Shown: piece after piece, positions 7,241-39,929 of the stretch
Position numbering within the stretch: the stretch's first letter is position 1
How the letters are laid out: every line of letters starts with the position of its first letter
NCBI GenBank assembly: GCA_016712025.1
Contig: JADJRW010000009.1
Coordinates: 16,066 to 80,065 of the forward strand
Reading direction: 5' to 3'
DNA: 64,000 nucleotides
Origin: Flavobacteriales bacterium
GTDB lineage: Bacteria > Bacteroidota > Bacteroidia > Flavobacteriales_F > PHOS-HE28
The notes under the pieces: model-generated
What the model was told of the DNA's origin: nothing
Databases searched by the model: none
Seen by the model: the letters and a program-made list of their open reading frames with translations, nothing else
Made by a program: the position numbers and the translations under genes

Positions 7241-8363
7241 GCTGATGATCAGCGGAGGTGGCACCGGCGGCCACATCTTCCCAGCGATCGCCATTGCGAA
7301 CGCTGTGCGCGAGCGCGAGCCCGACGCCGATGTGCTCTTCGTGGGTGCGCTCGGGAAGATGGAGATGGACAAAGTACCCGCCGCAGGATACCGTATCGAA
7401 GGGTTGCCGATTTGCGGGTTCCAGCGCGGTTCGATCATGAAGAACCTCGCGTTGCCCTGGCGGCTGTTGCGCAGCATGATGAAGGCGCGAAGTCTCGTGC
7501 GCACATTCCAGCCGCATGTGGCCGTGGGCGTCGGTGGTTATGCGAGCGGTCCGCTGCTCGCGGCCGCACAGCGCATGGGCGTGCCCACCTTGATACAGGA
7601 GCAGAACAGCTTCCCCGGAAAAACGAACATCTACCTCGCCAAGCGAGTGGATCGCATCTGCGTGGCCTACGATGGCATGGAGCGCTGGTTCCCCAAGGAG
7701 AAGTTGCACCGCACCGGAAATCCGGTACGATCGGAAGTGGTCCGTATCGAAGGCAAGCGCGGCATCGGCATGGAGCATTTCGGCCTGAAGGAAGGGTCTC
7801 CAGTGCTGTTCATCACCGGTGGAAGTCTTGGTGCGCGTGGTATCAACAAAGGGATCCTGAAGGCGCTTCCGCAGTTGAAGGCAGAAGGCATCCAAGTGAT
7901 CTGGCAGACCGGTTCGCCTTTCCTCGCGCAAGCGCTTGAAGCGGCAAGTTCGCTCGGGTACGACGCATGCGTGGTCACGGAGTTCGTGGACCGCATGGAC
8001 CTGGCCTATGCCGTGGCCGATCTGGTGGTGGCCCGCGCTGGGGCGATAAGTGTGAGCGAACTCTGCTTGGTGCAGCTCCCTGCGATCCTCGTTCCGCTGC
8101 CCACCGCTGCGGAGGACCACCAGACCATGAACGCACGTGCGCTCACCGATCGCGGTGCTGCGGTGCTCGTGCGCGACGATCGCACCGAGCAGGACCTGGG
8201 CGCGGTCATTCTCAAACTGATCACCGATCCAGAAGCGCTGCAAGGCTTGCGTCTGCGCATAGCTGGTATGGGCCGCCCGGACGCGGCTCAGGCCATCGCC
8301 GAAGAAACGATCCGGTTGGCACGATCCATTCCCTCGCAGCGGGTAGCTGTGGAAGCGGCATGA
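7200..8363 (+). CDS. murG: UDP-N-acetylglucosamine--N-acetylmuramyl-(pentapeptide) pyrophosphoryl-undecaprenol N-acetylglucosamine transferase
   Basis: GT28 signatures (ISGGGTGGHIFPAIAIA; C-terminal GxxxEL...H motif) and dcw position. Start ambiguous: 7200 overlaps the ftsW end by 41 nt, or the internal Met at ~7245. Confidence 0.9.
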   Translation: MSNPKPEPQQRPLKLMISGGGTGGHIFPAIAIANAVREREPDADVLFVGALGKMEMDKVPAAGYRIEGLPICGFQRGSIMKNLALPWRLLRSMMKARSLVRTFQPHVAVGVGGYASGPLLAAAQRMGVPTLIQEQNSFPGKTNIYLAKRVDRICVAYDGMERWFPKEKLHRTGNPVRSEVVRIEGKRGIGMEHFGLKEGSPVLFITGGSLGARGINKGILKALPQLKAEGIQVIWQTGSPFLAQALEAASSLGYDACVVTEFVDRMDLAYAVADLVVARAGAISVSELCLVQLPAILVPLPTAAEDHQTMNARALTDRGAAVLVRDDRTEQDLGAVILKLITDPEALQGLRLRIAGMGRPDAAQAIAEETIRLARSIPSQRVAVEAA

Positions 8364-9727
8364 GCATCCGTCCACATAGCCTGTTCTTCGTCGGTATCGG
8401 CGGCATCGGCATGAGCGGTCTCGCGCGCTACTTCCGCCAGCAAGGGGCACGCGTCGCCGGATATGATCGCACGCCCTCGGCACTCACCGATCAACTGCGC
8501 GCCGAAGGCATTGATGTGCAGTTCGACGAGGATCCGGAACTCATCCCCGTCGATCTGCGCCAAGCCGCGAAGGAAGTGCTCGTGGTGCGCACGCCTGCTG
8601 TGCCTGCCTCCAGCCCACTGCTCGCGTTTTGGAACGAGCAAGGCGCACGCATGCTCAAGCGCAGTGAAGTGCTAGGTATGATCACCGAGGACCGCCGAAC
8701 GATCGCCGTGGCAGGCACGCATGGCAAGACCACGGTGAGCACCATGGTCGCGCATCTGCTGCGCCACGGTGGCAAACGCGTCAACGCCTTCCTCGGCGGC
8801 ATCAGCGCCAACTACGGCACCAACGTGCTGCTCGACGCGCAGGCCGAACTGAACGTGGTCGAAGCCGATGAGTACGATCGCAGCTTCTTGCGCTTGCATC
8901 CGTCGGAAGCGATCATCACCGCGATGGATCCCGATCACCTGGACATCTACGGAACGCCCGAGGCGATGGTGGCCTCCTACAACGAGTTCGCCGCGCTCTG
9001 CACCGGACGCATCCTCGTACACGAACGCGCATCCGCCGCACTGCTGCAGGGACAGCGCACGAGCTATGCGATCGGCGGTAAAAGCGTTCCGCGCGCGGAA
9101 GAGGTTCGCGTGGAGAATGGCGCCTACCACTTCGATCTCGTCACCGAGCGCGGTACACTGCGCGACCTGCGCCTCGGGATGCCCGGACGGCACAATGTGG
9201 AGAACGCCACCGCCGCCGCGGCCATGGCCCAATACATCGGCGTGGACGATGCGCGCTTGCGCGAAGGGCTCGCTTCGTTCACAGGTGTGGAACGCCGTTT
9301 CCAAACGATCGTGAGCAACACGCACATGGTCTATGTGGATGACTACGCGCACCATCCAGCCGAACTGGAAGCCACGATCCGTTCCGCGCGTGAACTCTAT
9401 CCCGATCGCCACCTCACCGGCATCTTCCAGCCGCACCTCTTCACCCGCACGCGCGACTTCGCGCCGGGTTTCGCCAACAGCCTGGCGCTGCTCGATACGC
9501 TCTACCTGCTCGACATCTATCCGGCACGCGAGGAACCCATCCCGGGGATCACCTCAGAATGGCTGCTCCAGCAAGTACCGATGCAGGACAAGCACCTGCT
9601 CGCGCGCGAAGAAGTGCTGCGCCGCATCGTGGAGGCGCGCATCGAAGTGCTCCTCACGCTGGGTGCCGGGGATATCGATCGCCTCGTACCCCGCATCGCT
9701 GAACTGCTTCAACACCAAGCCGCATGA
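8360..9727 (+). CDS. murC: UDP-N-acetylmuramate--L-alanine ligase
   Basis: The conserved MurC N-terminus MSIRPHSLFFVGIGGIGMSGLARY begins at ATG 8360 (ATGA overlap with the murG stop). The ORF-track 5' extension to 7967 is a stop-free artefact. P-loop AGTHGKTT. Confidence 0.92.
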   Translation: MSIRPHSLFFVGIGGIGMSGLARYFRQQGARVAGYDRTPSALTDQLRAEGIDVQFDEDPELIPVDLRQAAKEVLVVRTPAVPASSPLLAFWNEQGARMLKRSEVLGMITEDRRTIAVAGTHGKTTVSTMVAHLLRHGGKRVNAFLGGISANYGTNVLLDAQAELNVVEADEYDRSFLRLHPSEAIITAMDPDHLDIYGTPEAMVASYNEFAALCTGRILVHERASAALLQGQRTSYAIGGKSVPRAEEVRVENGAYHFDLVTERGTLRDLRLGMPGRHNVENATAAAAMAQYIGVDDARLREGLASFTGVERRFQTIVSNTHMVYVDDYAHHPAELEATIRSARELYPDRHLTGIFQPHLFTRTRDFAPGFANSLALLDTLYLLDIYPAREEPIPGITSEWLLQQVPMQDKHLLAREEVLRRIVEARIEVLLTLGAGDIDRLVPRIAELLQHQAA

Positions 9728-10527
9728 AGAACCCGCGCAAACTCCTCCGCCCTGCGCTCATGGCCGCTGTCGCGGTGCTTCTGGTCGGTGCGCTCGGCTT
9801 CGTGGAACGCACGGCGGACCGCCGGCCGGTGCAGGATCTGGCCATTGAAGTGCGCGGCATGGACGGAGCCCGGTTCATTACCGAGCAGCAGGTGCGCGAG
9901 GAAGTGTTGAGCATGGGCGGTGCGGTGATCGGCGTGCCCCTCGCCGAGATGGACATCCGCGCCATTGAAGACCACCTGCGCGCCATTCCTAGTGTTTCGC
10001 GCGCGGAGGCCTATCACACGTTGGATGGCGTGCTGCATGTGCGCGTGGACCAGCGGGCGCCCGTGTTGCGCGTCTTCGATCGCGATGGAAGCACCTACTA
10101 CATCGATGCGGAAGGACATACCATGCCGGTGAGCAGCGCCCACACCCCGCGTGTGCCGGTGGCCCTCGGTGCGCTGCACATGCCCGGCGCTTCCACCAAC
10201 GTGCTCAGCGTATTGGACGGCGATAGCCTGATGCGTCTTTCGCGCTTGAACGAAGTGTTCCGTATCGCCACCTTCATCCGCGCCGACCCCTTCCGCGATG
10301 CACTGATCGATCAGATCGTGGCCACACCGGACGGCGAGTACGAGCTGATCCCACGCGTCGGCGCGCAACGTGTGCGCATCGGCGATGGCACCGCCCTCGA
10401 AGAACGTTTCGCCAAGCTGCGCCTCTTCTACCAGGAAGGCATCAAGCAGACCGACTGGCGCCGCTATTCCACCATCGACCTCCGCTTCGACGCGCAGGTC
10501 GTCTGCACCCAACGAACAACGCCCTGA
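9724..10527 (+). CDS. ftsQ: Cell division protein FtsQ (POTRA-containing)
   Basis: 267 aa with an N-terminal TM (LMAAVAVLLVGALGF), then a POTRA-like region. ATGA overlap with murC. Located between murC and ftsA. Confidence 0.8.
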   Translation: MKNPRKLLRPALMAAVAVLLVGALGFVERTADRRPVQDLAIEVRGMDGARFITEQQVREEVLSMGGAVIGVPLAEMDIRAIEDHLRAIPSVSRAEAYHTLDGVLHVRVDQRAPVLRVFDRDGSTYYIDAEGHTMPVSSAHTPRVPVALGALHMPGASTNVLSVLDGDSLMRLSRLNEVFRIATFIRADPFRDALIDQIVATPDGEYELIPRVGAQRVRIGDGTALEERFAKLRLFYQEGIKQTDWRRYSTIDLRFDAQVVCTQRTTP

Positions 10528-10541
10528 TAAACGAAGCACAC

Positions 10542-11831
10542 ATGGAGAACCAAGAGATCGTGGCCGGCCTCGACATCGGCACCACCAAGATCGCCTGCAT
10601 CGTCGGGCGCAAGAACGAACAAGGCAAGATCGAGATCCTCGGCATGGGCAAGAGCCGGTCCGAAGGCGTGAGCCGGGGCATGGTGGCCAACATCCAGAAG
10701 ACCGTCGAATCCATCAAGGCCGCGGTGAAGGAGGCCGAGGCCCAGGCGAACGTGGAGATCGGCACGGTGAACGTGGGCATCGCCGGCCAGCACATCCGCA
10801 GCATGCACCACCGTGGCATGATCACCCGCCAGAGCCTGGAGGAGGAGATCCGCCAGTTGGACATCGACCTGCTGATCGATGATATGTACAAGCTGGTGAT
10901 GCCCCCGGGCGAAGAGATCATCCATGTGCTGCCGCAGGAGTACATCGTGGACGGTGAGCAGGGCATCCGCGACCCGATCGGCATGAGCGGTGTGCGCATG
11001 GAGGCCAACTTCCACATCATCAGCGGCCAGGTAACCGCCGCGCGGAACATCAACAAGTGCGTGCATCGCGCCGAACTCGATGTCACCGAGCTGATCCTGG
11101 AACCGCTCGCCAGCGCCGATGCCGTGCTGAGCGCCGAGGAGAAGGAGGCCGGTGTGGTGCTCGTGGATATCGGCGGTGGTACTACGGACCTCGCCATCTT
11201 CTACGACAGCATCATCCGCCATACCGCGGTGATCCCTTTCGGCGGCAACGTGATCACCGAGGACATCCGCCAGGGCTGTGGTGTGATGCGCGAACAGGCC
11301 GAACTGCTCAAAGTGAAGTTCGGTAGCGCCCTCGCTGCGGAGAACAAGGAGAACGAAGTGGTCTGTATCCCGGGACTGCGTGGTCGCGAGCCGAAGGAGA
11401 TCAGCTTGCGTACGCTTTCGGAGATCATCCAGAGCCGCATGGAGGAGATCCTGGAGCACGTCCACTTCGAGATCCGCAACAGCGGCATGGAGAAGCAGAT
11501 GATCGCGGGTGTGGTGCTCACCGGCGGTGGTGCGCAATTGAAACACCTGCGCCAACTGGTGGAATACATGACCGGCATGAGCGCGCGTATCGGTTATCCG
11601 AACGAGCACCTCGCTAAGAGCAATGTGGACCAAGTGACCAGCCCGCTCTTCGCCACCGGCGTGGGCCTTGTGCTGAAAGGCTTCGACTACCTCGACCGTC
11701 GTCGACCCAAGCAGGTACAGGAGAACACCGCGATCCGCGTGAAAGGCCATTCCCAAACCTCCCGCGTCGGGGGCTTCTTCGATAAGGTGCTGAAAGGCGC
11801 CTCGGAACTGCTCAACGACGACGACAACTGA
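10542..11831 (+). CDS. ftsA: Cell division protein FtsA (actin-like ATPase)
   Basis: 429 aa; actin-fold motifs (LDIGTTKI, VDIGGGTTD). Position directly upstream of ftsZ. Confidence 0.93.
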   Translation: MENQEIVAGLDIGTTKIACIVGRKNEQGKIEILGMGKSRSEGVSRGMVANIQKTVESIKAAVKEAEAQANVEIGTVNVGIAGQHIRSMHHRGMITRQSLEEEIRQLDIDLLIDDMYKLVMPPGEEIIHVLPQEYIVDGEQGIRDPIGMSGVRMEANFHIISGQVTAARNINKCVHRAELDVTELILEPLASADAVLSAEEKEAGVVLVDIGGGTTDLAIFYDSIIRHTAVIPFGGNVITEDIRQGCGVMREQAELLKVKFGSALAAENKENEVVCIPGLRGREPKEISLRTLSEIIQSRMEEILEHVHFEIRNSGMEKQMIAGVVLTGGGAQLKHLRQLVEYMTGMSARIGYPNEHLAKSNVDQVTSPLFATGVGLVLKGFDYLDRRRPKQVQENTAIRVKGHSQTSRVGGFFDKVLKGASELLNDDDN

Positions 11832-11863
11832 CCCTTCCCTTCCACTTTCCAAAACCTACTGTC

Positions 11864-13465
11864 ATGAAATTCGATCTTCCCAAGGAACTGTCGTCGATCA
11901 TCAAAGTGATCGGCGTGGGGGGCGGCGGCAGCAATGCCGTGAACCACATGTACGCCCAAGGCATCAAGGGCGTTGACTTCATCATCTGCAACACCGACAA
12001 GCAGGCGCTGGACATCAGTCCGGTGCCCGTGAAAGTGCAGCTCGGGCCCGAGCTCACCGACGGCCTCGGTGCGGGCTCCGTGCCCGATCGCGGCAAAGAC
12101 GCCGCGCAGGAGAACATCGATGAGGTACGCCAACTCCTCAGCACGCGCACCAAGATGGTCTTCATCACCGCCGGTATGGGCGGTGGCACCGGCACCGGCG
12201 CCGGTCCCGTGATCGCCAGCATCGCACGCGAGCTCGGCATCCTCACCGTCGGCATTGTTACCATGCCCTTCCAGTGGGAAGGCCGTAAGCGGAAGCAACA
12301 GGCCATGGCCGGGATCGAGGATTTACGCCGTTCGGTGGATACTTTGTTGGTGATCAACAACGATCGCCTGCGTGACCTCTATGGCAACCTGAGCCTGGAC
12401 AACGCTTTCGGATACGCGGACAACGTGCTCACCACAGCCGCGCGCGGGATCGCCGAGATCATCACCGTGACCGGTAAGGTGAACGTGGACTTCGAGGACG
12501 TGAAGACCGTGATGACCAACAGCGGCGCTGCCGTGATGGGCATGGCCGAAGCCGAAGGGGAGGAGCGTGCCTTGCGTGCCGCGCAGGAAGCGCTGGCTTC
12601 ACCGTTGCTGAACGACAACGATATCAAGGGCGCCAAGTTCGTGCTGCTCAACATCACCCACGGCACGCAAGAAGTGCTGATGGACGAGATCACGGAGATC
12701 ACCGACCACATCCAGGATGCCGCCGGCAGCAGCGCCGATGTGATCTGGGGCTATTGCAAGGATGAATCGCTCGGCGCGAAAGTGCGTGTTACAGTGATCG
12801 CCACCGGTTTCCAAGTGAATCCGGACACCGGTCTGATCGGTACCGCACCCGAGGCGCGCAAGGTGATCCCGCTCGATGCCGACGTGCCCACGATGATCAT
12901 GCAGCCGATCGTGAACCCGGTCGCCGTGACGCCGAAGCAGTCCGCTCCGATAGCGCCTCCAGTTCCCAGCGAGCAGCCCATGGAGCCGTATTTGAAGCCC
13001 GCTGCCCCCGTGGTGAACGAGGCGCCATCCACACCTCCTGTGGTCGCACCCTTCCGTCCGGAGCGCCCTGTGGAGTTCGAGGTGGTTAACAAGCAGCCCG
13101 CCGCGCCGGTGAGCGATGACAAGAAGGTGCATTCACTGTACGATGATGCGCCCCCTGCCACCGTCAACACGACTAGCGCCGACAACTCCGCGCAACGCCT
13201 TCCACCGGCCGAACACCAAGCCCGTGTGGAGGAGCGCCTTTCGCGTATGCGTGATCTCACCTTGCGCCTGCGTTCACCGAACGGCATCAACGACCTGGAA
13301 CGCGAACCCGCGTACATACGCAAGCGCGTTACCCTCACCGAAGGACCGCGCAGCACGGACAGTACCGTGAGCCGTTACACGCTGAGCGAGGACCAGGACG
13401 AGAGCGGAGAACGCCGTGTGGAACTGAAGAAGAACAATCCGTTCTTGCACGACAACGTGGATTGA
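11864..13465 (+). CDS. ftsZ: Cell division GTPase FtsZ
   Basis: Tubulin signature GGGTGTG and the T7 loop region. Long Pro/Ala-rich linker followed by a conserved C-terminal peptide (533 aa). A long FtsZ like this is typical for Bacteroidota. Confidence 0.95.
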   Translation: MKFDLPKELSSIIKVIGVGGGGSNAVNHMYAQGIKGVDFIICNTDKQALDISPVPVKVQLGPELTDGLGAGSVPDRGKDAAQENIDEVRQLLSTRTKMVFITAGMGGGTGTGAGPVIASIARELGILTVGIVTMPFQWEGRKRKQQAMAGIEDLRRSVDTLLVINNDRLRDLYGNLSLDNAFGYADNVLTTAARGIAEIITVTGKVNVDFEDVKTVMTNSGAAVMGMAEAEGEERALRAAQEALASPLLNDNDIKGAKFVLLNITHGTQEVLMDEITEITDHIQDAAGSSADVIWGYCKDESLGAKVRVTVIATGFQVNPDTGLIGTAPEARKVIPLDADVPTMIMQPIVNPVAVTPKQSAPIAPPVPSEQPMEPYLKPAAPVVNEAPSTPPVVAPFRPERPVEFEVVNKQPAAPVSDDKKVHSLYDDAPPATVNTTSADNSAQRLPPAEHQARVEERLSRMRDLTLRLRSPNGINDLEREPAYIRKRVTLTEGPRSTDSTVSRYTLSEDQDESGERRVELKKNNPFLHDNVD

Positions 13466-13520
13466 GCCACTTCGATCACGCTTTCGCGGGAAAGCGCTCG
13501 AAGACGAGTAGAAGATCGCG

Positions 13521-13554
13521 GGCGGGCAGGGTAACTTGCCCGCCTCTTTCATTC
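13521..13554 (+). terminator. Putative rho-independent terminator after ftsZ
   Basis: GC stem GGCGGGCA / TGCCCGCC with an 8-nt loop, followed by TCTTTCATT, 56 nt after the ftsZ stop. Confidence 0.45.
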
Positions 13555-13564
13555 CCCCATCGCC

Positions 13565-14010
13565 ATGGATCTCAAGGAACGTATCGACGCGGACATCAAG
13601 ACCGCGATGTTGGCCCGCGACAAAGACCGCTTGAACGCGCTGCGCGCGATCAAAAGCGCCATCCTGTTGGAATTGACCAAGGAAGGTGGTCAGGCCCAAG
13701 TTTCGGAGGAAGCGGGCGCCAAGCTCCTGCAGAAGTTGCACAAGCAACGCGCCGAGGCCGCCGCGATCTTCAACCAACAGGGAAGGGCCGATCTCGCTGC
13801 AGAGGACGAAGCACAAGCCAAGGTGATCGAGGCCTACCTGCCCGCGCGCATGAGCGACGCCGATGTGGAAGCGGCGGTGAAAGCCATCATCGTCAGCACG
13901 GGGGCCAGCGGCATGAAGGACATGGGCCGTGTGATGGGCGAAGCGAACAAGCAACTGGCCGGCAAGGCCGATGGCGGTGCCATCGCGGCGATGGTGAAGC
14001 GGTTGTTGGG
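13565..14010 (+). CDS. yqeY: GatB/YqeY domain protein; 3' end uncertain because the reading frame runs into the G/C homopolymer tract
   Basis: N-terminal ~147 aa (MDLKERIDADIKTAMLARDKDRLNALRAIKSA...AIAAMVKRLLGG) matches the YqeY/GatB-Yqey family, which is normally ~148 aa. The ORF-track continuation to 14533 is Gly/Pro/Arg nonsense derived from poly-G/poly-C. Confidence 0.7.
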
Positions 14011-15010
14011 GGGGGCCCCCCGCCTGCGGGGGGGGCGGGCCGGGGGGTTTTGCCCGGCCCGCCGGGGTTGCCCTCGGGGGGGGGGGGGGGGGGCCCGCCC
14101 GGGGCCCGCCCGGCGGGCGAAACGGGCGGGGGACCCCCCGGGGGGGGGGGGCGCCCCGCGCCCGGCGCCGGGGTCGGGGGGGTGGCGCGCCCCGCCAAGG
14201 GCGGCCGGGGCTTCAGGGGGGATCGTTCCAACAAGCCGCCCGAACGAACCCCGGCGCCCGGGGAGGGGGGGGGGCGCCCCGGGGGGACCCCGCCGCGCCG
14301 CGGCCGCCCCGCGCGCAGGGGTTGCAACGCCCCCGCAACACACGGCGGGGGAACCCGACCACAGGGTTGGGGCAGCGAGACAACACCCGCACGCCGCCGG
14401 CCGGGGGCAGGGAAAAAAATATTTCAATGGAGTTGCCCCCGCGCAAACACCGCCCCCGGCGACCCGAAGCCCGGGCCCGTTTGGGCCCCCGGGGGGGGGG
14501 GGGGGGCCCCCCCCTTACCGACCGCTAGGGTGAACTACCGCACTCGCGCGGGGCGCGGGGCGGGGGGGGTGCGGGGCGGCGCCGCCGCGCCGCCCCCCCA
14601 CGGGGGGGGGGGGGCTTGGGGCCGGGGTCGCGCTCGAACGAGACCCCGCGTGTAGGGGGCAGGCGGGCCGGGCCACCCCGCACGGGGGGGGGGCCGGCCC
14701 GCCCACATTGCGCGGGGCCGGCCCGGGGGCCGGAACTCCGCCGTGGTGGGGGCCCGGGGCGTGGGCGCGAGGACCACCGCGGGCGGCCGCCCCCCGAGAC
14801 GCGCGGGGGCGGGGCCACCGCCCCACACCGCGGGGGGGAGAGGGGGGCACCCCGGCCGGCCTCGATGTGTTTGTGGCCGGGGGCGGGGTTGGGGGGGGCG
14901 GAAAGCGGCGGGGGCTCCTCCCCGGCGCGGAAAGGACGGCCCGCCCGGGCCGGCGGAGGGGGTCGGGGCGGCCCGCGCGGGGGGGGGCGGGGGGGGGCGG
15001 TGGGGGTGTA
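13995..15010. other. ~1-kb tract of >90% G+C dominated by G and C homopolymers (runs of up to ~20); probably a non-biological assembly or base-calling artefact
   Basis: Seen directly, for example gggggggggggggggcccgcccggggcccgcc and gggggggggggggggcccccccc. All six frames give only Gly/Pro/Arg/Ala strings. It ends abruptly at ~15010 where normal sequence resumes. Confidence 0.6.
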
Positions 15011-15314
15011 TAGACGGATCGTGAAAATCACTCGTGGTCATAGCCGAACGAAGCTTCCACTGATCGGCGTTGCGGTTCTGAACGACAACCCCGATAATTC
15101 AGGTCGCGAGAACCTTCGCCCCCGCCGAGACCTGCTCGCGATCGTTGTAGAAGGCGACCAAGACCTTAGGTACCAGCGGTGATGCGCCAGGTCACTGCCC
15201 AACTGGGCGGAGACCCATCCGCCAGCGGTGCTTCGGCGTTCCGTCCGGCTTGCGAACTGGCGAGGCACGGACAGCGCGACATCCGTTCCCACGTGACCCA
15301 GGACGGGGGGGGCC

Positions 15315-16070
15315 TCACAACCGAGCCAGGCTGTCCATCAGCTCCTGCTTCTTGCGGCGGCTCACGGCGACGTTGGTGCCGTCGCTCATGATCACCTCGC
15401 CGCCTTCGCCGCGGATGTACTTCTTCACGTGCTTCACGTTGATGAGGTAGCTGTGGTGTACGCGCACGAACTGCTCGGGATCGAGGATATCCTCGAACTC
15501 CTTCAATGTGCGGCTGATCACCAGGCGCTTCTTGTCCTTCTGGTGGACCACCGTGTAGTTGCTGTCGCTCTCGCAGTACATCACCTCGTCCACATCCACC
15601 ATCTCCAAGCCGTCGGCCACGGGCAGTGCGATGCGGCGCTCGGCGGCAGCGGGCCGGGTCAGGTTCTTCAGCAGCGCCATGAACTGATCGGGGGTCTGCG
15701 GGGTGCGCATCTCCGCGCGTACCTTGTTGATGGCGCCCGCGAGTTCATCGGGGTCCACCGGCTTCAACAGATAGTCCAACGCGCTGAAGCGGATGGCCTT
15801 CACGGCGTAGCCTTCGTGGGCGGTGGTGAAGATGACGTGCGGGCGGTCCGGGCCGATGGCCTGCAATAGATCGAAGCCGGTCTGCTTGCCCATCTCGATA
15901 TCCAGGAAGAGGATCTTGGGCTTCACCTTGCTCAACAGTTCGATGCCCTCGGGCACGTTGTTGGCCATGCCCAACAGCGGCACGTCCGGATGCTTGCGTT
16001 CGAGGATGCCGCTGAGGGCATCGCGACAGTGTTGTTCGTCGTCAACGATCACGGCGGTGAGCTCGCTCAT
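15315..16070 (-). CDS. Two-component response regulator, receiver + LytTR DNA-binding domain
   Basis: Receiver motifs (VIVDDE...LFLDIEM...K) and a C-terminal LytTR domain (RVHHSYLINVKHVKKY, 'SDGTNVAVSRR'). Start set at MSELTAVIVDDE (internal to the ORF-track call). Confidence 0.88.
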   Translation of the reverse strand: MSELTAVIVDDEQHCRDALSGILERKHPDVPLLGMANNVPEGIELLSKVKPKILFLDIEMGKQTGFDLLQAIGPDRPHVIFTTAHEGYAVKAIRFSALDYLLKPVDPDELAGAINKVRAEMRTPQTPDQFMALLKNLTRPAAAERRIALPVADGLEMVDVDEVMYCESDSNYTVVHQKDKKRLVISRTLKEFEDILDPEQFVRVHHSYLINVKHVKKYIRGEGGEVIMSDGTNVAVSRRKKQELMDSLARL

Positions 16071-16171: not shown

Positions 16172-16780
16172 TTAGTTCTTGGCTTCGGCCTCCTGCTCGG
16201 CGCGCTTCTGCTCGGTCCAGGCGGCCAGTTCCATCGTGGGATCCACGAAGGCGGCCACCTCTTTGCGCGCGCGCTTCACCGGGGCTTGGGCCAGTGCTTC
16301 CTCCACCGGGGCTTGCTTGCTCTCCAGGCGGGCGGTGTGCAGGTGCTCGTAGCCGAAATCATTGTCCTTGGTGTTGAAGGCGATCTTGCCCACCGGGCCA
16401 TCGTACTGTTGCTCGCCCTCGGCAGGTTGCGCCAGCAGGCTTACCTGGAAGTGGAAGAGGAAGTCCTTTTTCGCCTCTGCGTTCTTCGGAAGGCGGGCGT
16501 CGAACACCAGTTCCTTGGCGATGGTGCCGGGGAGCTCGAACCGCAGGCGGTACTCATGGCCCAAGGGCAGTTCCATTTGGAATTGGGCCAGGCCCTTATC
16601 CATGCGGTTGAAGGCGGCGCCGTCCTGGAGCACAGTGACCGACGCGCCTTCGAGCGGGTTGCTGCTGAGCACCTTGCCCTCGATGCGGAGCACATGGCTG
16701 GTCTCGTTGGCGGAAGCGGTGATCGCGATGGAAGCGATGGCGGCTTGGGCGGTGAGGCGGAGGAAGGTGAGGGCTTTCAT
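16172..16780 (-). CDS. Small secreted protein, CarboxypepD_reg-like (prealbumin-like) fold predicted; paralog 3 of a three-member family in this window
   Basis: Signal peptide MKALTFLRLTAQAAIASIAITASA. The core GKVLSSNPLEGASVTVLQDG...GHEYRLRFELPG resembles carboxypeptidase-regulatory-like domains. Same architecture as the ORFs at 26794..27303 and 28654..29163. Confidence 0.6.
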   Translation of the reverse strand: MKALTFLRLTAQAAIASIAITASANETSHVLRIEGKVLSSNPLEGASVTVLQDGAAFNRMDKGLAQFQMELPLGHEYRLRFELPGTIAKELVFDARLPKNAEAKKDFLFHFQVSLLAQPAEGEQQYDGPVGKIAFNTKDNDFGYEHLHTARLESKQAPVEEALAQAPVKRARKEVAAFVDPTMELAAWTEQKRAEQEAEAKN

Positions 16781-16821
16781 TTTGGTGGGAGATTCGGAGG
16801 GCGTTGTTCGTCTTTCGCGAC

Positions 16822-16924
16822 CCAAAACAACGTCGGGAGTGGGGGTAGGGGTGAGCGCGGGCAGCGGGGAGGGAGTAGGTGGCGGTGTATGGGGTCAGGG
16901 GTAGCAGGCAGGAGCAGGTGCAGG
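16822..16924 (-). promoter_or_regulatory. Putative LytTR-box promoter of the secreted-protein gene: direct-repeat box plus a Bacteroidota-type -7-like element
   Basis: In gene sense, CCGCCACCTACT (plus strand AGTAGGTGGCGG, ~16874-16885) with a weaker partner (AGCAGGTGCAGG ~16913-16924). TTGTTTTG (plus CAAAACAA ~16823-16830) lies 43 nt upstream of the ATG. Coordinates approximate. Confidence 0.45.
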
Positions 16925-17083
16925 AGGCGCCCAACGTGCAATGCGGGGCGAGTGGGTTGGTACGGCACGGAAGAGAACGATGTGATGTTTGGCCTCGGCT
17001 GGGGACCCAGTGAGGCTGTGTCTCCTGAAATGGAAGAACCCCACGATCCGGGGACCGCAGGGCTCTTTCAGAGAAGCGCGTTG

Positions 17084-33965: not shown

Positions 33966-35358
33966 ATGTCCCTCCTGCACTATCGTTTCCTTCTTTTCGT
34001 TCTGGCCGCTGTTGTAGCGGCCGGTATGGGTCTGGACCTCAGGGAGGTGGACGCCGCGCAGTACGCGGCCATGGCGAGGAGATGCTGGAACGCAAGGACT
34101 ACCTGCACCTGTACCACCGCGGCAGGATTACCTGGACAAGCCTCCGTTGCTTTTCTGGCTGTCCGCGCTGAGCTACCATGTCTTCGGGGTCAGCAATTGG
34201 AGCTACAAACTGCCCTCCGTATTGGCCGCGTCCTGGGGTCTTTACGCCCTTTACCGGTTCGTGCGCCTGCATCGTGATGAGGCACGCCCGTTGGGCCTGT
34301 CTTCGGACTAGTAGCGCCGCCTTCCTTCTCATGACCAACGACGTGCGGAGCGACACCTTGCTCACCGCCCGGTGATCAGCGCGGTGTGGACGGGCTCGGC
34401 GTACCTCGAGGAACGGAGATGGTGGTCGTTGATCGCCTTCGGGGTCGCTTTGTCCGCTGGCTTGCTGGCCAAGGGGCCCATCGGGGCGGTGGCGCCCATA
34501 CTGGCATTGGGCGGTGATGTCGCCTTGCGCGGGCGGTGGGGGAAGCTGTGGGACGCACGCTTGCTGCTCGTGCCCGTCCTGGTCCTCCTGCTCCTCCTCC
34601 CCATGTTCCTGGGCCGCTACGAGCAGCATGGTTGGCATGGTGTGCGCTTCTTCCTATGGGAACAGAGCTTCGGTCGTATCACCGGTGAGAACCGCTGGAA
34701 GGATGACAGCACCCCGTTCTTCTTCCTGCACGAGTTACCCTGGCTCATGCTGCCATGGACGCTCTTCCTGGTCGTGGGTCTTTGGCGATTTCCAGGTTTG
34801 GGCAACGCTGTGGAACGCATTGCGAGGAACGCATCTCGCTCTGGCGGGTGCCGTTGCCGTATTCGTGGCGGTGTCCTTCTCGCACTTCAAGTTGCCGCAT
34901 TATATCTACGTCACCCTGCCCTGGTTCGCGGTGCTGGCGGCGAACGGCCTGAGGACCCGCCGCCTTGGCTGGTCCGCGCGCATGGGGCGCTCTTGGCGCT
35001 CCTTGGTGCGGGCGTCGGGTTCGTTGTCCTGTATTGTTTTCCATCCAACACCGGCATGGTGACGCTGATCGCCTTGGTGATCACGTGCGGTTACGCCATC
35101 CGAACCACATGGCAGGGAAGGGGATCATGGGTCGCGGCGACGGGCGCGTTGTTCATCGCATGCGCACTGACGATCAATGTGTGGATCCATCCCGCCGTTC
35201 TTCAATACCAGGCCAATGCCTTCGCTGGCCGTTGGGCAGTCGAGCACGGCGTTCCGGAGGATCGCTTCTTCGGCCTGCAAGTGGCGGGTACCGCGCTCGT
35301 CTCTACGCCGGGCACCCGGTCCGTTGGTTGTCCAATTTGGAGGAAGCTGCGGGAGTAG
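33966..35358 (+). pseudogene. Glycosyltransferase family 39/83 (ArnT/PMT-like membrane glycosyltransferase), at least 3 frameshifts
   Basis: Characteristic N-terminal segment is split across frames: ...DAAQYAAMAR | EMLERKDYLHLYHRGR | DYLDKPPLLFWLSALSYHVFGVSNWSYKLPSVLAASWGLYALYRF. A polytopic membrane C-terminal part follows in ORF 34372..35358. Confidence 0.55.
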
Positions 35359-35790
35359 CGCCTGGCGGTGATTTACACTGATGCCGCCCATGCCGAACCC
35401 TTCGGGAGGCGGGGTTCGTTCCGAAGGACAGCTTGGCGCTCCAGGATCACCGCGTGCAACTGCTCAGCCCGGAGTTCCTCCTACCGAGCACTCGTTCCAA
35501 GGTGCTTGGGTCCCGCTTGATCTTGGTCTACTAGCAGACCTCTGCTCACCCGCTCACATTTTTTTTCGGGACCTCCGAACAAGAGTTCGAGCAGTCTGTT
35601 CAGTCCTGTACAACTTTCCCTAAACAACCGTCCAGCGGCGGCATCAACCAACCATCCCATGCAGACGTTCCCTCCCGGACAACCAGGCCTCTTTATGAGG
35701 TTGTTGCGAACCATGTCACTCATGGTCGCCTTGGTTTTCCCAGTCCCGCAATGACAATCCTATTGCCCTTCCGACGGAGGTTCGGGCAAT

Positions 35791-36210
35791 GTGTTCAACG
35801 TACAGCGCGTGCAGTTCGCTGGTATCGACAACAGTAGTGGCGACAACAATGGCTACGCCGACTTCACGTCGATCAGCGCAACGGTTCAAGCAGGTGATGC
35901 CTATTCGATCACTTTGGACGGGGCGGGGGTCTTCTTCCTTCCGAAGCGCTTCCGCGCCTGGATGGACTGGGATCAGAACGGAGTGTTCTCCGCTTCCGAG
36001 CTCGTATTCCAAGCAAATGGCTTTGGCCAGCAAAGCGGAACGGTCACAGTTCCAGCAGGGGCGAACCTGGGGTCCACGCGTATGCGTGTGAACACCAGTT
36101 CACTCACCTACCAAGGCGCCTGCGCCAATTACAGTCTGGGTGAAGTCGAGGATTACACGGTCATGGTCATCGGTCAATGCCAGGCCAGTGCGGGCGCACT
36201 CAGCCAGTAA
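35791..36210 (+). CDS. GEVED-domain segment, probable N-terminal portion of the large repeat surface protein (separated from it by a frameshift-ridden, degenerate stretch)
   Basis: NYSLGEVEDYTVMV motif and surrounding GEVED-domain-like sequence. A signal-peptide-like stretch (MRLLRTMSLMVALVFPVP) lies ~100 nt upstream in another frame. Confidence 0.5.
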   Translation: MFNVQRVQFAGIDNSSGDNNGYADFTSISATVQAGDAYSITLDGAGVFFLPKRFRAWMDWDQNGVFSASELVFQANGFGQQSGTVTVPAGANLGSTRMRVNTSSLTYQGACANYSLGEVEDYTVMVIGQCQASAGALSQ

Positions 36211-36479
36211 AGCCACTGATCTGGCTATACGGGCATTGAAGCTTTCATTCAAGCAACTGTTACCGCTCAGCCTGTAGTTCCCTCCAGGATACGAAGTCGT
36301 CTATGTGCTTACGCAAGGCCCAGGACTTGTCATTCAGAACGCTGGTGCCGACCCGCAGTTCTCTGTGGGTGTTGGAGATTACACCATCCACACCTGCACA
36401 TGACCTTTGATGGCAAGGGCTGAGCAACGACAACGACAACACAGTTACGCTGCGCGCAGAACGCGGGCGCCCCGAGCTT

Positions 36480-39400
36480 AGACCGAAGAGGACTCTAATC
36501 CACACCCGTTACGACCAACACGCTGGACCTGTCCATCGTGGAATTGGGCGTGACCACGGGCTTTGATGTGAACGGATTGCTGGTGCAAGGCGGTGGCGCG
36601 ATCTGCGCCGCCTTGGATGTAGCCGGTGCTCAGTTCAGTGTCACGGACCCGAACGCAGGCACCCTGAGCGGTGGCGCGGATGTGTGCGGCACCAACGGTG
36701 CAGCTACACTAACGGCCACTGCCAACGGCGACGCGAACGTACCAGCGGGATACAGCACGGTGTACGTGCTGACGCAAGGTGCGGGCCTGACGATCGTGAA
36801 CGCAGGAGCGGCCCCGAGCTTCGATGTGACCGAAGATGGACTCTCACGATCCACACCCTGGTGTACGATGCCAACACGCTGGACCTGTCCATCGTGGAGT
36901 TGGGTGTTACCACGGGCTTTGATGTGAACGGATTGCTGGTGCAAGGCGGCGGCGCGATCTGCGCGAGCCTGGATGTGGCCGGTGCCCAGTTCAACGTGAG
37001 CAGCCCGAGCGCAGGCACCCTGAGCGGTGGCGCGGATGTGTGCGGCACCAACGGTGTGGCCACACTCACCGCCACTGCCAACGGCGACGCGAACGTACCA
37101 GCGGGATACAGCACGGTGTACGTGCTGACGCAAGGTGCGGGCCTGACGATCGTGAACGCAGGAGCGGCCCCGAGCTTCGACGTGACCGAAGATGGACTCT
37201 ACACGATCCACACCCTGGTGTACGACCCCAACACGCTGGACCTGTCCATCGTGGAGTTGGGCGTGACCACGGGCTTTGATGTGAACGGATTGCTGGTGCA
37301 AGGCGGCGGCGCGATCTGCGCGAGCCTGGATGTGGCCGGTGCCCAGTTCAACGTGAGCAGCCCGAGCGCAGGCACCCTGAGCGGTGGTGCGGATGTGTGC
37401 GGCACCGATACGACCACCCTCACTGCCACTGCCAACGGCGACGCGAACGTGCCAGCGGGATACAGCACGGTGTACGTGCTGACGCAAGGTGCGGGCCTGA
37501 CGATCGTGAACGCAGGAGCGGCCCCGAGCTTCGATGTGACCGAGGATGGACTCTACACGATCCACACCCTGGTGTACGATCCCAACACGCTGGATCTGTC
37601 CATCGTGGAATTGGGCGTGACCACGGGCTTTGATGTGAACGGATTGCTGGTACAAGGCGGCGGCGCGATCTGCGCGAGCCTGGATGTGGCCGGTGCCCAG
37701 TTCAACGTGAGCAGCCCGAGCGCAGGCACCCTGAGCGGTGGCGCGGATGTGTGCGGCACCAATGGTGTGGCTACGCTAACGGCCACTGCCAACGGCGACG
37801 CGAACGTACCAGCGGGATACAGCACGGTTTACGTGCTGACGCAAGGTGCGGGCCTGACGATCGTGAACGCAGGAGCGGCCCCGAGCTTCGATGTGACCGA
37901 AGATGGACTCTACACGATCCACACCCTGGTGTACGATGCCAACACGCTGGATCTGTCCATCGTGGAATTGGGCGTGACCACGGGCTTTGATGTGAACGGA
38001 TTGCTGGTGCAAGGCGGCGGCGCGATCTGCGCGAGCCTGGATGTGGCCGGTGCCCAGTTCAACGTGAGCAGCCCGAGCGCAGGCACCCTGAGCGCGGATG
38101 ACGACGAAGTATGCTTCGAAGAAGGTACGGTCACTATCTCAGCCACCCCGAATGGTGATGCAGTTGTACCGGCGGGCTATAGCACGGTATACGTGCTGAC
38201 GCAAGGTGCGGGCCTGACGATCGTGAACGCAGGCGCGACTCCGAGTTTTGAGATCAGCGCGATCGGTGACTACACCATCCATACGTTGGTATACGACCCG
38301 AATACGCTGGACCTGTCCATCGTGGAGTTGGGCGTGACCACGGGCTTCGATGTGAACGGATTGCTGGTGCAAGGCGGTGGCACGATCTGCGCGAGCCTGG
38401 ATGTGGCCGGTGCGTCCGTAACGGCGGTGGAATGTCCGCTGAATTGTGATGCACTTGCAGGCACCCTGAGCGGTGGTGCGGATGTGTGCGGCACCAATGG
38501 TGTGGCCACACTCACTGCCACTGCCAACGGCGACGCGAACGTACCAGCGGGATACAGCACGGTGTACGTGCTGACGCAAGGTGCGGGCCTGACGATCGTG
38601 AACGCAGGAGCGGCCCCGAGCTTCGACGTGACCGAAGATGGACTCTACACGATCCACACCCTGGTGTACGATCCCAACACGCTGGATCTCACCATCGTGG
38701 AGTTCGGCGTGACCACGGGCTTTGATGTGAACGGATTGCTGGTGCAAGGTGGCGGCGCGATCTGCGCGAGCCTGGATGTGGCCGGTGCCCAGTACAACGT
38801 GAGCAGCCCTGGTGCGGGAACACTGTCCGCCGAGGCTTCGGAAGTCTGCCTGATCGATGGTGTGGCCACATTGACCGCCGCTGCCAATGGCGACGCGAAC
38901 GTACCAGCGGGTTACAGCACGGTCTACGTGCTGACGCAAGGTGCGGGCCTGACGATCGTGAACGCCGGAGCGGCCCCGAGCTTCGACGTGACCGAAGACG
39001 GACTCTATACCATCCACACCCTGGTGTACGACCCCAACACGCTGGACCTGTCCATCGTGGAGTTGGGCGTGACCACGGGCTTTGATGTGAACGGGCTGCT
39101 GGTGCAAGGCGGCGGCGCGATCTGCGCGAGCCTGGATGTGGCCGGCGCCCCGATCAATGTGATCGAGTGCAACACGGATTGCATCGCCGATGCGGGTACG
39201 ATCGCGGCTGAAGACTTCATCGTCTGTCGTTCGGGCGGTAACGCGACCCTTACCGGTATCCCCGGGGGCAATGCAGTGGTTCCGGCCGGCTACCAGACCG
39301 TGTACGTCCTGACCCGTGGTTTCGGTCTCACCATCGTCCAAGCGGGTGCGACACCTGTGTTCAACGTGCAACAACTCGGTCTGTACCGAATTCACACCCT

Positions 39401-39560
39401 GATCTATGATCCCGCGACGCTGGATCTATCGATCGTGCAGTTCGGCACAACCACCGGTTTCGATGTGAACGCCCTTTTGATACAGGGTGGAGGCACGATC
39501 TGCGCCAGCTTGGATGTGACCGGTGCCCCGCACCTGGTGGTTGGTCCCTTCCTGTGCTCC
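36480..39560 (+). repeat. Tandem array of ~8.5 near-identical 357-bp (119-aa) coding repeats
   Basis: The string gtgaccgaagatggactctacacgatccacaccctggtgtacga and its flanks recur with a period of 357 nt. One copy has a 3-nt deletion (354) and one a 1-nt deletion (356, the frameshift at ~36845). Two copies carry short Cys-rich insertions (~38400 and ~39150). Most copies are >95% identical at the DNA level. Confidence 0.9.
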
Positions 39561-39929
39561 CTCCTCAACGGCATCTTCGGTGCCGGTCAGCAGAGCACCG
39601 ATGCCCTGGTGTTGCAGGATGGTACCGAGATCGACGCCGAGATGCTGAAGGCTATCGAAATGGACATGCCTGCCTCGGTAACCGCTGTTTGGCCGAACCC
39701 TGTGCGTGATGTGCTGAATGTGGAATTGACCGTGCTGTCTGAAACCCAGTTGGGACTCTCCGTCACCAACAGTCTCGGACAGGAAGTCGCACCGCGCATC
39801 GGTATCAATGCTGGTGTGGGTGTTAGCAGAACTACGATCGATGTCGCCGCACTTCCGGTCGGCACCTATTTCCTGCGGCTCTCCGCTGGCGATGGCGTGA
39901 CCACTGAGAGGTTTGTGAAGGTGGATTGA
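36684..39929 (+). CDS. Large tandem-repeat cell-surface protein with T9SS C-terminal sorting domain (intact 3' part of a longer, 5'-disrupted gene)
   Basis: 1081-aa ORF made of 119-aa repeats (...LTATANGDANVPAGYSTVYVLTQGAGLTIVNAGAAPSFDVTEDGLYTIHTLVYDPNTLDLSIVELGVTTGFDVNGLLVQGGG...). It ends with a T9SS CTD-like ~80 aa (VWPNPVRDVLNVELTVL...GTYFLRLSAGDGVTTERFVKVD). Confidence 0.8.
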   Translation: MRHQRCSYTNGHCQRRRERTSGIQHGVRADARCGPDDRERRSGPELRCDRRWTLTIHTLVYDANTLDLSIVELGVTTGFDVNGLLVQGGGAICASLDVAGAQFNVSSPSAGTLSGGADVCGTNGVATLTATANGDANVPAGYSTVYVLTQGAGLTIVNAGAAPSFDVTEDGLYTIHTLVYDPNTLDLSIVELGVTTGFDVNGLLVQGGGAICASLDVAGAQFNVSSPSAGTLSGGADVCGTDTTTLTATANGDANVPAGYSTVYVLTQGAGLTIVNAGAAPSFDVTEDGLYTIHTLVYDPNTLDLSIVELGVTTGFDVNGLLVQGGGAICASLDVAGAQFNVSSPSAGTLSGGADVCGTNGVATLTATANGDANVPAGYSTVYVLTQGAGLTIVNAGAAPSFDVTEDGLYTIHTLVYDANTLDLSIVELGVTTGFDVNGLLVQGGGAICASLDVAGAQFNVSSPSAGTLSADDDEVCFEEGTVTISATPNGDAVVPAGYSTVYVLTQGAGLTIVNAGATPSFEISAIGDYTIHTLVYDPNTLDLSIVELGVTTGFDVNGLLVQGGGTICASLDVAGASVTAVECPLNCDALAGTLSGGADVCGTNGVATLTATANGDANVPAGYSTVYVLTQGAGLTIVNAGAAPSFDVTEDGLYTIHTLVYDPNTLDLTIVEFGVTTGFDVNGLLVQGGGAICASLDVAGAQYNVSSPGAGTLSAEASEVCLIDGVATLTAAANGDANVPAGYSTVYVLTQGAGLTIVNAGAAPSFDVTEDGLYTIHTLVYDPNTLDLSIVELGVTTGFDVNGLLVQGGGAICASLDVAGAPINVIECNTDCIADAGTIAAEDFIVCRSGGNATLTGIPGGNAVVPAGYQTVYVLTRGFGLTIVQAGATPVFNVQQLGLYRIHTLIYDPATLDLSIVQFGTTTGFDVNALLIQGGGTICASLDVTGAPHLVVGPFLCSLLNGIFGAGQQSTDALVLQDGTEIDAEMLKAIEMDMPASVTAVWPNPVRDVLNVELTVLSETQLGLSVTNSLGQEVAPRIGINAGVGVSRTTIDVAALPVGTYFLRLSAGDGVTTERFVKVD

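Follow-up and report, generated by a model that had tools for sequence, protein, structure and literature searches.

A G/C-rich tract between yqeY and a LytTR regulator gene in a Flavobacteriales metagenome-assembled genome is very probably a consensus failure overlying an ordinary gene

Introduction

The described systems closest to the tract reported here are the poly-G artefact of two-colour Illumina sequencing, biological targeted hypermutation, and the residual consensus errors of Nanopore R9.4.1 assemblies. Two-colour artefacts consist of long, near-pure G (or C) runs that are independent of the underlying sequence and typically lie at read or contig ends. Among the hypermutation systems, which include deaminase clusters, diversity-generating retroelements introduce substitutions only at the adenines of a nearby template repeat and carry a reverse transcriptase. 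R9.4.1 errors are usually indels and transitions rather than a drift toward G. As far as we know, overwriting of A and T in blocks of about 500 nt with the register preserved is not a described error mode. For Nanopore R9.4.1 metagenome assemblies, residual consensus errors and unpolished low-coverage regions have been acknowledged (PMC8012365), and indel errors have been discussed (PMC9262707).

We analyzed a 64,000-nt stretch (hereafter, the window) of a contig from a Flavobacteriales metagenome-assembled genome (MAG), in which about 1 kb of G/C-rich, low-complexity sequence separates yqeY from a gene for a LytTR-type response regulator. The tract shares its G excess, its G runs, and its low complexity with two-colour poly-G. 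Unlike poly-G, it is internal to the contig, interleaves G and C runs of at most 18 nt, retains the G and C positions of the true gene, and adjoins errors of the deletion type. As in targeted hypermutation, the substitutions are base specific, confined to a short stretch, and in register; here, however, the changes affect T as well as A and extend to about 70% of these sites, the window holds no template repeat, the stop codon of a conserved gene is destroyed, and deletions accompany the substitutions. The locus resembles R9.4.1 residual error in its deletion-only profile beside perfectly polished flanks, in its position at a strain-variable spot, and in the frameshifted genes of a sister MAG at the same locus. 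It departs from that precedent in the register-true overwriting of A and T in two blocks of about 500 nt, one of which is templateless.

Results

Extent and composition of the tract

The tract occupies positions 14006 to 15010 (1,005 nt) (Table 1). A first-pass annotation, made from the bare sequence, had reported about 1 kb of G/C homopolymers at this place; the tract is present as described, and its edges could be sharpened to 14006 on the left, since alignment to relatives ends at 14005, and to ~15008-15010 on the right, where ordinary-looking sequence returns. With 97 A, 349 C, 494 G, and 65 T, the tract has a G+C content of 83.9%, compared with 61.3% in the remainder of the window. The strong G/C enrichment given in the annotation thus stands, but its figure of >90% over about 1 kb does not apply throughout, as 200-nt windows peak at 90% and drop to 74-80% at the centre (14200-14450). 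Outside the tract, no 100-nt window within the 64 kb reaches 80% G+C. Of the 44 homopolymer runs of at least 6 nt in the window, 24 fall within the tract (longest G18, G16, and G13), equivalent to ~24 per kb versus ~0.3 per kb elsewhere. Its fraction of distinct 6-mers is 0.46 (mean, 0.79), its GC skew is +0.15 to +0.3, and 9 of the 10 plus-strand G4-type motifs of the window fall within it. No N runs are present, and scans of the tract for tandem periodicity, tRNAs, and Rfam families were empty or trivial.

Table 1. Genes and segments of the yqeY-LytTR locus (window coordinates)
Feature	Coordinates	Strand	Reading
ftsA	10542-11831		Division gene
ftsZ	11864-13465		Division gene
yqeY (GatB/YqeY family)	13565-14008	+	148 codons intact; last codon and stop overwritten
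Tract, left block	14006-14514		~509 nt, G/C-rich, low complexity; without identifiable source
Intact 29-nt island	14515-14543	-	Stop and last codons of hypothetical gene (P0001/P0003 family)
Tract, right block	14544-15010	-	Body of hypothetical gene, A/T sites mostly overwritten
Hypothetical gene 5' part (start near 15161) and upstream spacer	15011-15316	-	Normal composition, many deletions, in-frame stops
LytTR-type response regulator	15315-16070	-	Intact; right border of damage; Pfam Response_reg and LytTR

In relatives, the tract is replaced by a variable spacer of ordinary sequence

Scanning species-representative genomes with YqeY retrieved Flavobacteriales MAGs from activated sludge, and the genome and metagenome scans taken together returned relatives only. 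The best species-representative relatives show 90% nucleotide identity both over ftsA, ftsZ, and yqeY and over the sequence that begins with the LytTR gene. The order ftsA-ftsZ-yqeY-variable spacer-LytTR is common to at least 10 related contigs. Exact matches to the FtsZ, FtsA, and LytTR proteins of the window were absent from the contig index, and the same strain was not represented by an independent assembly; the nearest contigs are 92-95% identical. These include the short-read contigs L162-L167, whose flanks align to those of the window without gaps over 4,950 nt at 92.5-94.9% identity; L162 is contig 74267 of SRR36607705.

The spacer itself holds zero, one, or two genes among close relatives (L001-L006 and L161-L173), making the yqeY-LytTR interval a hot spot of gene-content variation. 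It measures 60-90 nt in L003, L004, and L006, contains a single minus-strand open reading frame (ORF) of 300 aa (P0001) in L002, and carries two plus-strand genes in L001 and L170-L173. The hypothetical gene occurs as three allelic types (P0001 and P0002, 300 aa each; P0003, 231 aa). A protein search with the L002 ORF retrieved just three clusters among 5.8 billion proteins, none of which contains a Pfam domain. P0003 is found on L162-L167, where the order is LytTR, 210 nt, P0003, 28 nt, yqeY, ftsZ, and ftsA. The first-pass annotation had recommended comparing the region after ftsZ in relatives; this comparison places the tract between syntenic flanks, in a spacer that is elsewhere variable, ordinary coding sequence. 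The 169 related loci compared total 1.3 Mb, and some of their contigs share 92-95% identity with the window; none has a 200-nt segment that reaches 80% G+C. A functional G-quadruplex or i-motif island was also considered and rejected, because the orthologous site in relatives is ordinary coding sequence and the motifs are not conserved.

One sister MAG shows irregularities of its own. In L171 (JADJHV010000008.1, 4904-6966), which is 99% identical to L172, 1-nt indels break ftsA and yqeY; its FtsA is shortened (414 versus 429 aa), and the yqeY gene call is abolished. At the variable spot, L171 has a 1.9-kb stretch (8004-9893) of ~50% G+C in which no gene is called.

The right half of the tract overlies a hypothetical gene

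When the tract was compared with relatives by ordinary blastn, the 29-nt island near its middle gave the only match, with 28 of 29 nt identical to L002, L162, and L168. The island encodes the C-terminal peptide AVVHPSGR-stop, the counterpart in a relative being AVVQPSGR-stop. An exact search for the island, with its A/T bases, in viral contigs gave no matches.

For the remainder, we used a custom alignment scoring in which an A or T of the relative facing a G or C of the window is neutral. Only under this scoring is the right block colinear with the hypothetical gene. Against L002 the alignment scores 312, compared with 116 ± 10 for dinucleotide shuffles (z = 18.8), and against L162 it scores 273 (z = 15.5); among 320 locus strands, L002 is the unique top match. 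When the right block was divided into 60-nt segments, five of eight independently selected the same diagonal out of ~12,400.

The aligned sites reveal a consistent pattern of replacement. At A sites of the right block, 37 bases are kept, 44 have become G, and 24 have become C (65% converted); at T sites, 29 are kept, 50 have become G, and 32 have become C (74% converted). Taken together, ~68% of A/T sites now read G or C. Changes among the G/C sites are lopsided, with 24 of C to G (16% of C sites) and 3 of G to C, and the plus strand shows a net drift of 118 changes to G versus 59 to C. Identity at G/C sites is 88.5%, approximately equal to the divergence of the flanks, and deletions amount to ~7%.

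Conversion is nearly uniform over codon positions 1, 2, and 3 (66%, 70%, and 66%). In contrast, the differences between the flanks and L002 fall overwhelmingly at position 3 (76/79 in ftsA, 72/78 in ftsZ, and 28/34 in yqeY; 176/191 in total). The flanks are thus genuine sequence that has diverged under selection, whereas the changes within the tract were never under selection. The retained A/T sites are clustered (runs test, z = -3.0), and whether a site became G or C correlates weakly with the G/C context around it (rho = 0.20, p = 0.013). Clustered survivors and a context-dependent choice are what patchy overwriting of a draft would be expected to leave. A stricter rule, in which each new base is copied from its neighbour, was not adopted given that correlation and an agreement of 66% where ~52% is expected.

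These alignments also bear on how much sequence has been lost. The first-pass annotation had called about 1 kb of true sequence unknown; ~800 of the 1,311 nt can in fact be mapped onto the close relative L162. It had also suggested that the tract might conceal the real end of yqeY and one or two small genes, which agrees with the overwritten stop codon described below and with the colinearity of 14515-15010 with the hypothetical gene.

The adjoining 300 nt contain deletions only

Composition returns to normal at ~15010, as the annotation had noted, but the integrity of the sequence does not, as the following 300 nt are full of deletions. The match to L162 resumes at 15008. Between 15059 and 15329, the window differs from L162 by 6 mismatches in 271 aligned sites (97.8% identity) and by 31 deletions totalling 62 nt, with no insertions. 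Against the same contig, positions 9056-14005 align over 4,950 nt without a gap, and the LytTR gene aligns to relatives gap-free from 15317 onward. A ratio of 31 indels to 6 substitutions, in one direction and beside indel-free flanks, is the profile of a sequencing consensus and not of evolution. These deletions also account for the two in-frame stops detected by tblastn in the 5' part of the hypothetical gene. Because the deletion profile continues 3' of the tract, the damaged region comprises the whole spacer, 14006-15316.

In a global fit of 14515-15330, L162 scores 628 and L002 scores 393, and thus the true gene is probably P0003-like, running from ~14525 to ~15161 on the minus strand. 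Judged by this template, the true locus would probably be ~940 nt long and consist of the yqeY stop (KRLLS-stop), ~28 nt, a minus-strand gene of ~231 aa, ~210 nt, and the LytTR gene. A G8 run at 15305-15312, immediately beyond where the LytTR gene ends, is matched in L162 by a G7 run; it is probably genuine and outside the artefact.

The left half of the tract has no counterpart in relatives

At the site of the left block, relatives have 18-28 nt only (26 nt in L162), and the block lengthens the spacer by ~370 nt relative to L162. Under the A/T-to-G/C-neutral scoring, searches of both strands of the window itself and of 175 related loci for a source yielded scores at the shuffle level. A fold-back chimera was rejected on the same grounds, as the left block scores at the shuffle level against the reverse complement of the right block and is unrelated to it. 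The first 44 nt look compatible with the post-yqeY sequence of L002, although not significantly so. The left block may be an insert specific to this strain that has been degraded, or nothing more than noise in the consensus.

The tract extends yqeY into a spurious fusion in the public record

Residues 4-148 of YqeY match Pfam PF09424 over the full model (1-143 of 143; E = 2.3e-42). The first-pass annotation had concluded that yqeY loses its C terminus at the tract; in fact the full domain is covered to residue 148, and only the last residue and the stop are overwritten. The last codon and stop, TCC TAG in relatives, read GGG GGG in the window. YqeY proteins of relatives are 149-150 aa long and end in KRLLS-stop or KRLLSL-stop, whereas the window ORF, deprived of its stop, extends to 14533 and encodes 322 aa.

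This fusion is present in NCBI as MBK8339239.1 (322 aa), annotated as "GatB/YqeY domain-containing protein," with a tail of 174 residues of Gly, Pro, Arg, and Ala. It is the only long member of its 90% cluster (n = 15), the other 14 members being 110-159 aa. The FtsA, FtsZ (identical), fusion, and LytTR proteins correspond to MBK8339237.1, MBK8339238.1, MBK8339239.1, and MBK8339240.1, from a MAG contig of 94,366 nt. As MBK8339239.1 and MBK8339240.1 are consecutive, there is no annotation inside the tract, and because the window proteins, including the 322-aa fusion, are in NCBI, the tract is part of the public record.

Discussion

A failed consensus as the most probable explanation

We consider it very probable that consensus building or polishing of a long-read MAG failed here and that the organism itself lacks this sequence. 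The first-pass annotation had likewise favoured an artefact over real genome, a judgement strengthened by finding that the right half is an overwritten real gene, that the next stretch bears only deletions, and that relatives lack the tract. Of the origins that it had proposed, a low-quality read artefact fits: G and C are kept, A and T are overwritten, and the neighbouring sequence is biased toward deletions.

The proposed course of events begins with the spacer, whose gene content differs between co-occurring strains and species. Given this variability, the flanks, and not the spacer, would be well supported by reads. Deep and consistent support over the conserved flanks would permit polishing to high accuracy, while the strain-specific spacer would be built from very few noisy Nanopore reads, presumably at low coverage. 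The right-hand 300 nt would then keep the raw error profile with its many deletions. In two adjacent blocks of ~500 nt (14006 to ~14510 and ~14510 to 15010), most A and T positions would have been overwritten by G or C with the G/C skeleton and the register kept, presumably by a consensus or polishing software step. The default window length of Racon is about the size of each of these two blocks.

The most likely source is a Nanopore R9.4.1 assembly made with CANU, Racon, and medaka, at a low-coverage, strain-variable spot. We infer this platform and pipeline, and membership of the window in the project of Singleton et al. 2021, from accession-block adjacency and from sister MAGs of that project (L001 and L171-L173) in the same block. 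That project combined R9.4.1 PromethION reads, CANU with corMinCoverage=0, Racon with --include-unpolished, two rounds of medaka, and a final Racon step with HiSeq X reads; reads were quality-trimmed at Q20 (Singleton et al. 2021). Several points count against a failed consensus. One is the left block, for which no source was recovered that would mark it as a degraded copy. Our literature searches returned no description of an A/T-to-G/C overwriting error mode. Likewise, to our knowledge no tool has been documented to replace A and T by G and C in register, and a drift toward G is not the usual form of R9.4.1 error.

Alternative explanations

The net G drift on the plus strand (118 versus 59, with 24 C-to-G and 3 G-to-C changes) and the positive GC skew recall the no-signal poly-G artefact of Illumina sequencing, which a short-read assembler might have carried into the contig directly or which might have come in when G-rich junk reads were used for polishing. 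Where a draft has no quality values, junk reads of high quality that align through its G/C positions could prevail at the A/T positions, and blocks of Racon window length would suit polishing with such reads. Nevertheless, we regard this explanation as very unlikely. No run exceeds G18, and the tract lies inside the contig and follows a real gene colinearly; the poly-G reads suggested in the first-pass annotation are difficult to reconcile with runs of at most 18 nt and a base-for-base correspondence of 14515-15010 to the expected gene. T-to-C (n = 32) and A-to-G (n = 44) changes are as common as those predicted by loss of one channel, and with transitions as frequent as transversions, one lost colour channel does not account for the whole pattern. 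Moreover, the presumed project used HiSeq X, which has four-colour chemistry, and trimmed at Q20. Less probable again, to the point of being hardly credible, is a scaffold-gap fill, a mis-join, or a foreign insertion between two contigs. Such an event would account for a left block without counterpart in relatives and for a spacer ~370 nt longer than that of L162. However, the flanks are syntenic in every relative, N runs are absent, and both the right block and the 300 nt after it carry the sequence predicted for this locus, correctly ordered and oriented. The annotation's suggestions of a mis-join and of a gap fill are therefore countered, respectively, by flanks syntenic with at least 10 related contigs and by the colinearity of 14515-15010 with the expected gene rather than with unrelated sequence. 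Judged by synteny and colinearity, this explanation is excluded for the right half.

The remaining alternative is that the tract is real DNA, namely, a dead gene that has undergone extreme local A/T-to-G/C hypermutation and deletion, for example, by repeated error-prone repair or by reverse transcription under a nucleotide-pool bias. Damage that is limited to A/T sites and keeps the register would indeed befit a base-specific mutational process, uniform rates over codon positions also suit a pseudogene, and the deposited record does contain the tract. Against this, yqeY, a conserved gene, loses its stop codon to the tract; the neighbouring 31 deletions, 0 insertions, and 6 substitutions are not an evolutionary ratio; the 1.3 Mb of related loci hold no comparable tract; and the apparent source is an early Nanopore MAG pipeline that retains unpolished sequence. 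We also know of no process that converts ~70% of A and T sites over 1 kb and leaves the neighbours untouched. A variable region of a diversity-generating retroelement was rejected separately, as A and T are converted alike (65% and 74%) and there is no second copy in the 64-kb window. We therefore give hypermutation very little credence, and the same small probability attaches to the broader case of a genuine decaying gene rewritten by an A/T-to-G/C and deletion process or of dense base modification misleading the nanopore basecaller. If real, such rewriting or modification would indicate that an uncultured Flavobacteriales bacterium has an activity that edits or modifies its DNA locally.

Implications for public records

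The tract is almost certainly an error in the public record and not biology, and its main relevance is to data hygiene. A spurious 322-aa protein stands in NCBI nr, and a real hypothetical gene is hidden. Automated scans would score such tracts as G-quadruplex or i-motif islands, low-complexity proteins, or "novel" sequence, and models trained on MAGs would learn them. The underlying sequence is partly recoverable, as alignment neutral to A/T-to-G/C changes revealed the gene beneath the damage; the same approach can serve to detect and mend such patches elsewhere among long-read MAGs.

Other irregular stretches in the window

Three further regions of the window deviate in composition or gene structure. 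The intergenic stretch at 16700-17020 has a strong G skew (up to +0.52) with no overall G/C enrichment; its alignment to relatives is poor, with several indels of 3-4 nt. The kilobase with the lowest 6-mer diversity of the window, below that of the tract, lies in a tandem repeat at 36515-39162 (360-nt unit, 7.4 copies, 87% matches). This repeat is located within a 1,120-aa ORF (36567-39929, plus strand), which is probably a repetitive surface protein. The ORFs of 34372-36600 appear fragmented: a 139-aa ORF (35791-36210) is split from the repeat protein, and a 328-aa ORF (34372-35358) has an odd Arg/Gly-rich C-terminal part. These fragmented ORFs may reflect residual frameshift errors elsewhere in the contig.
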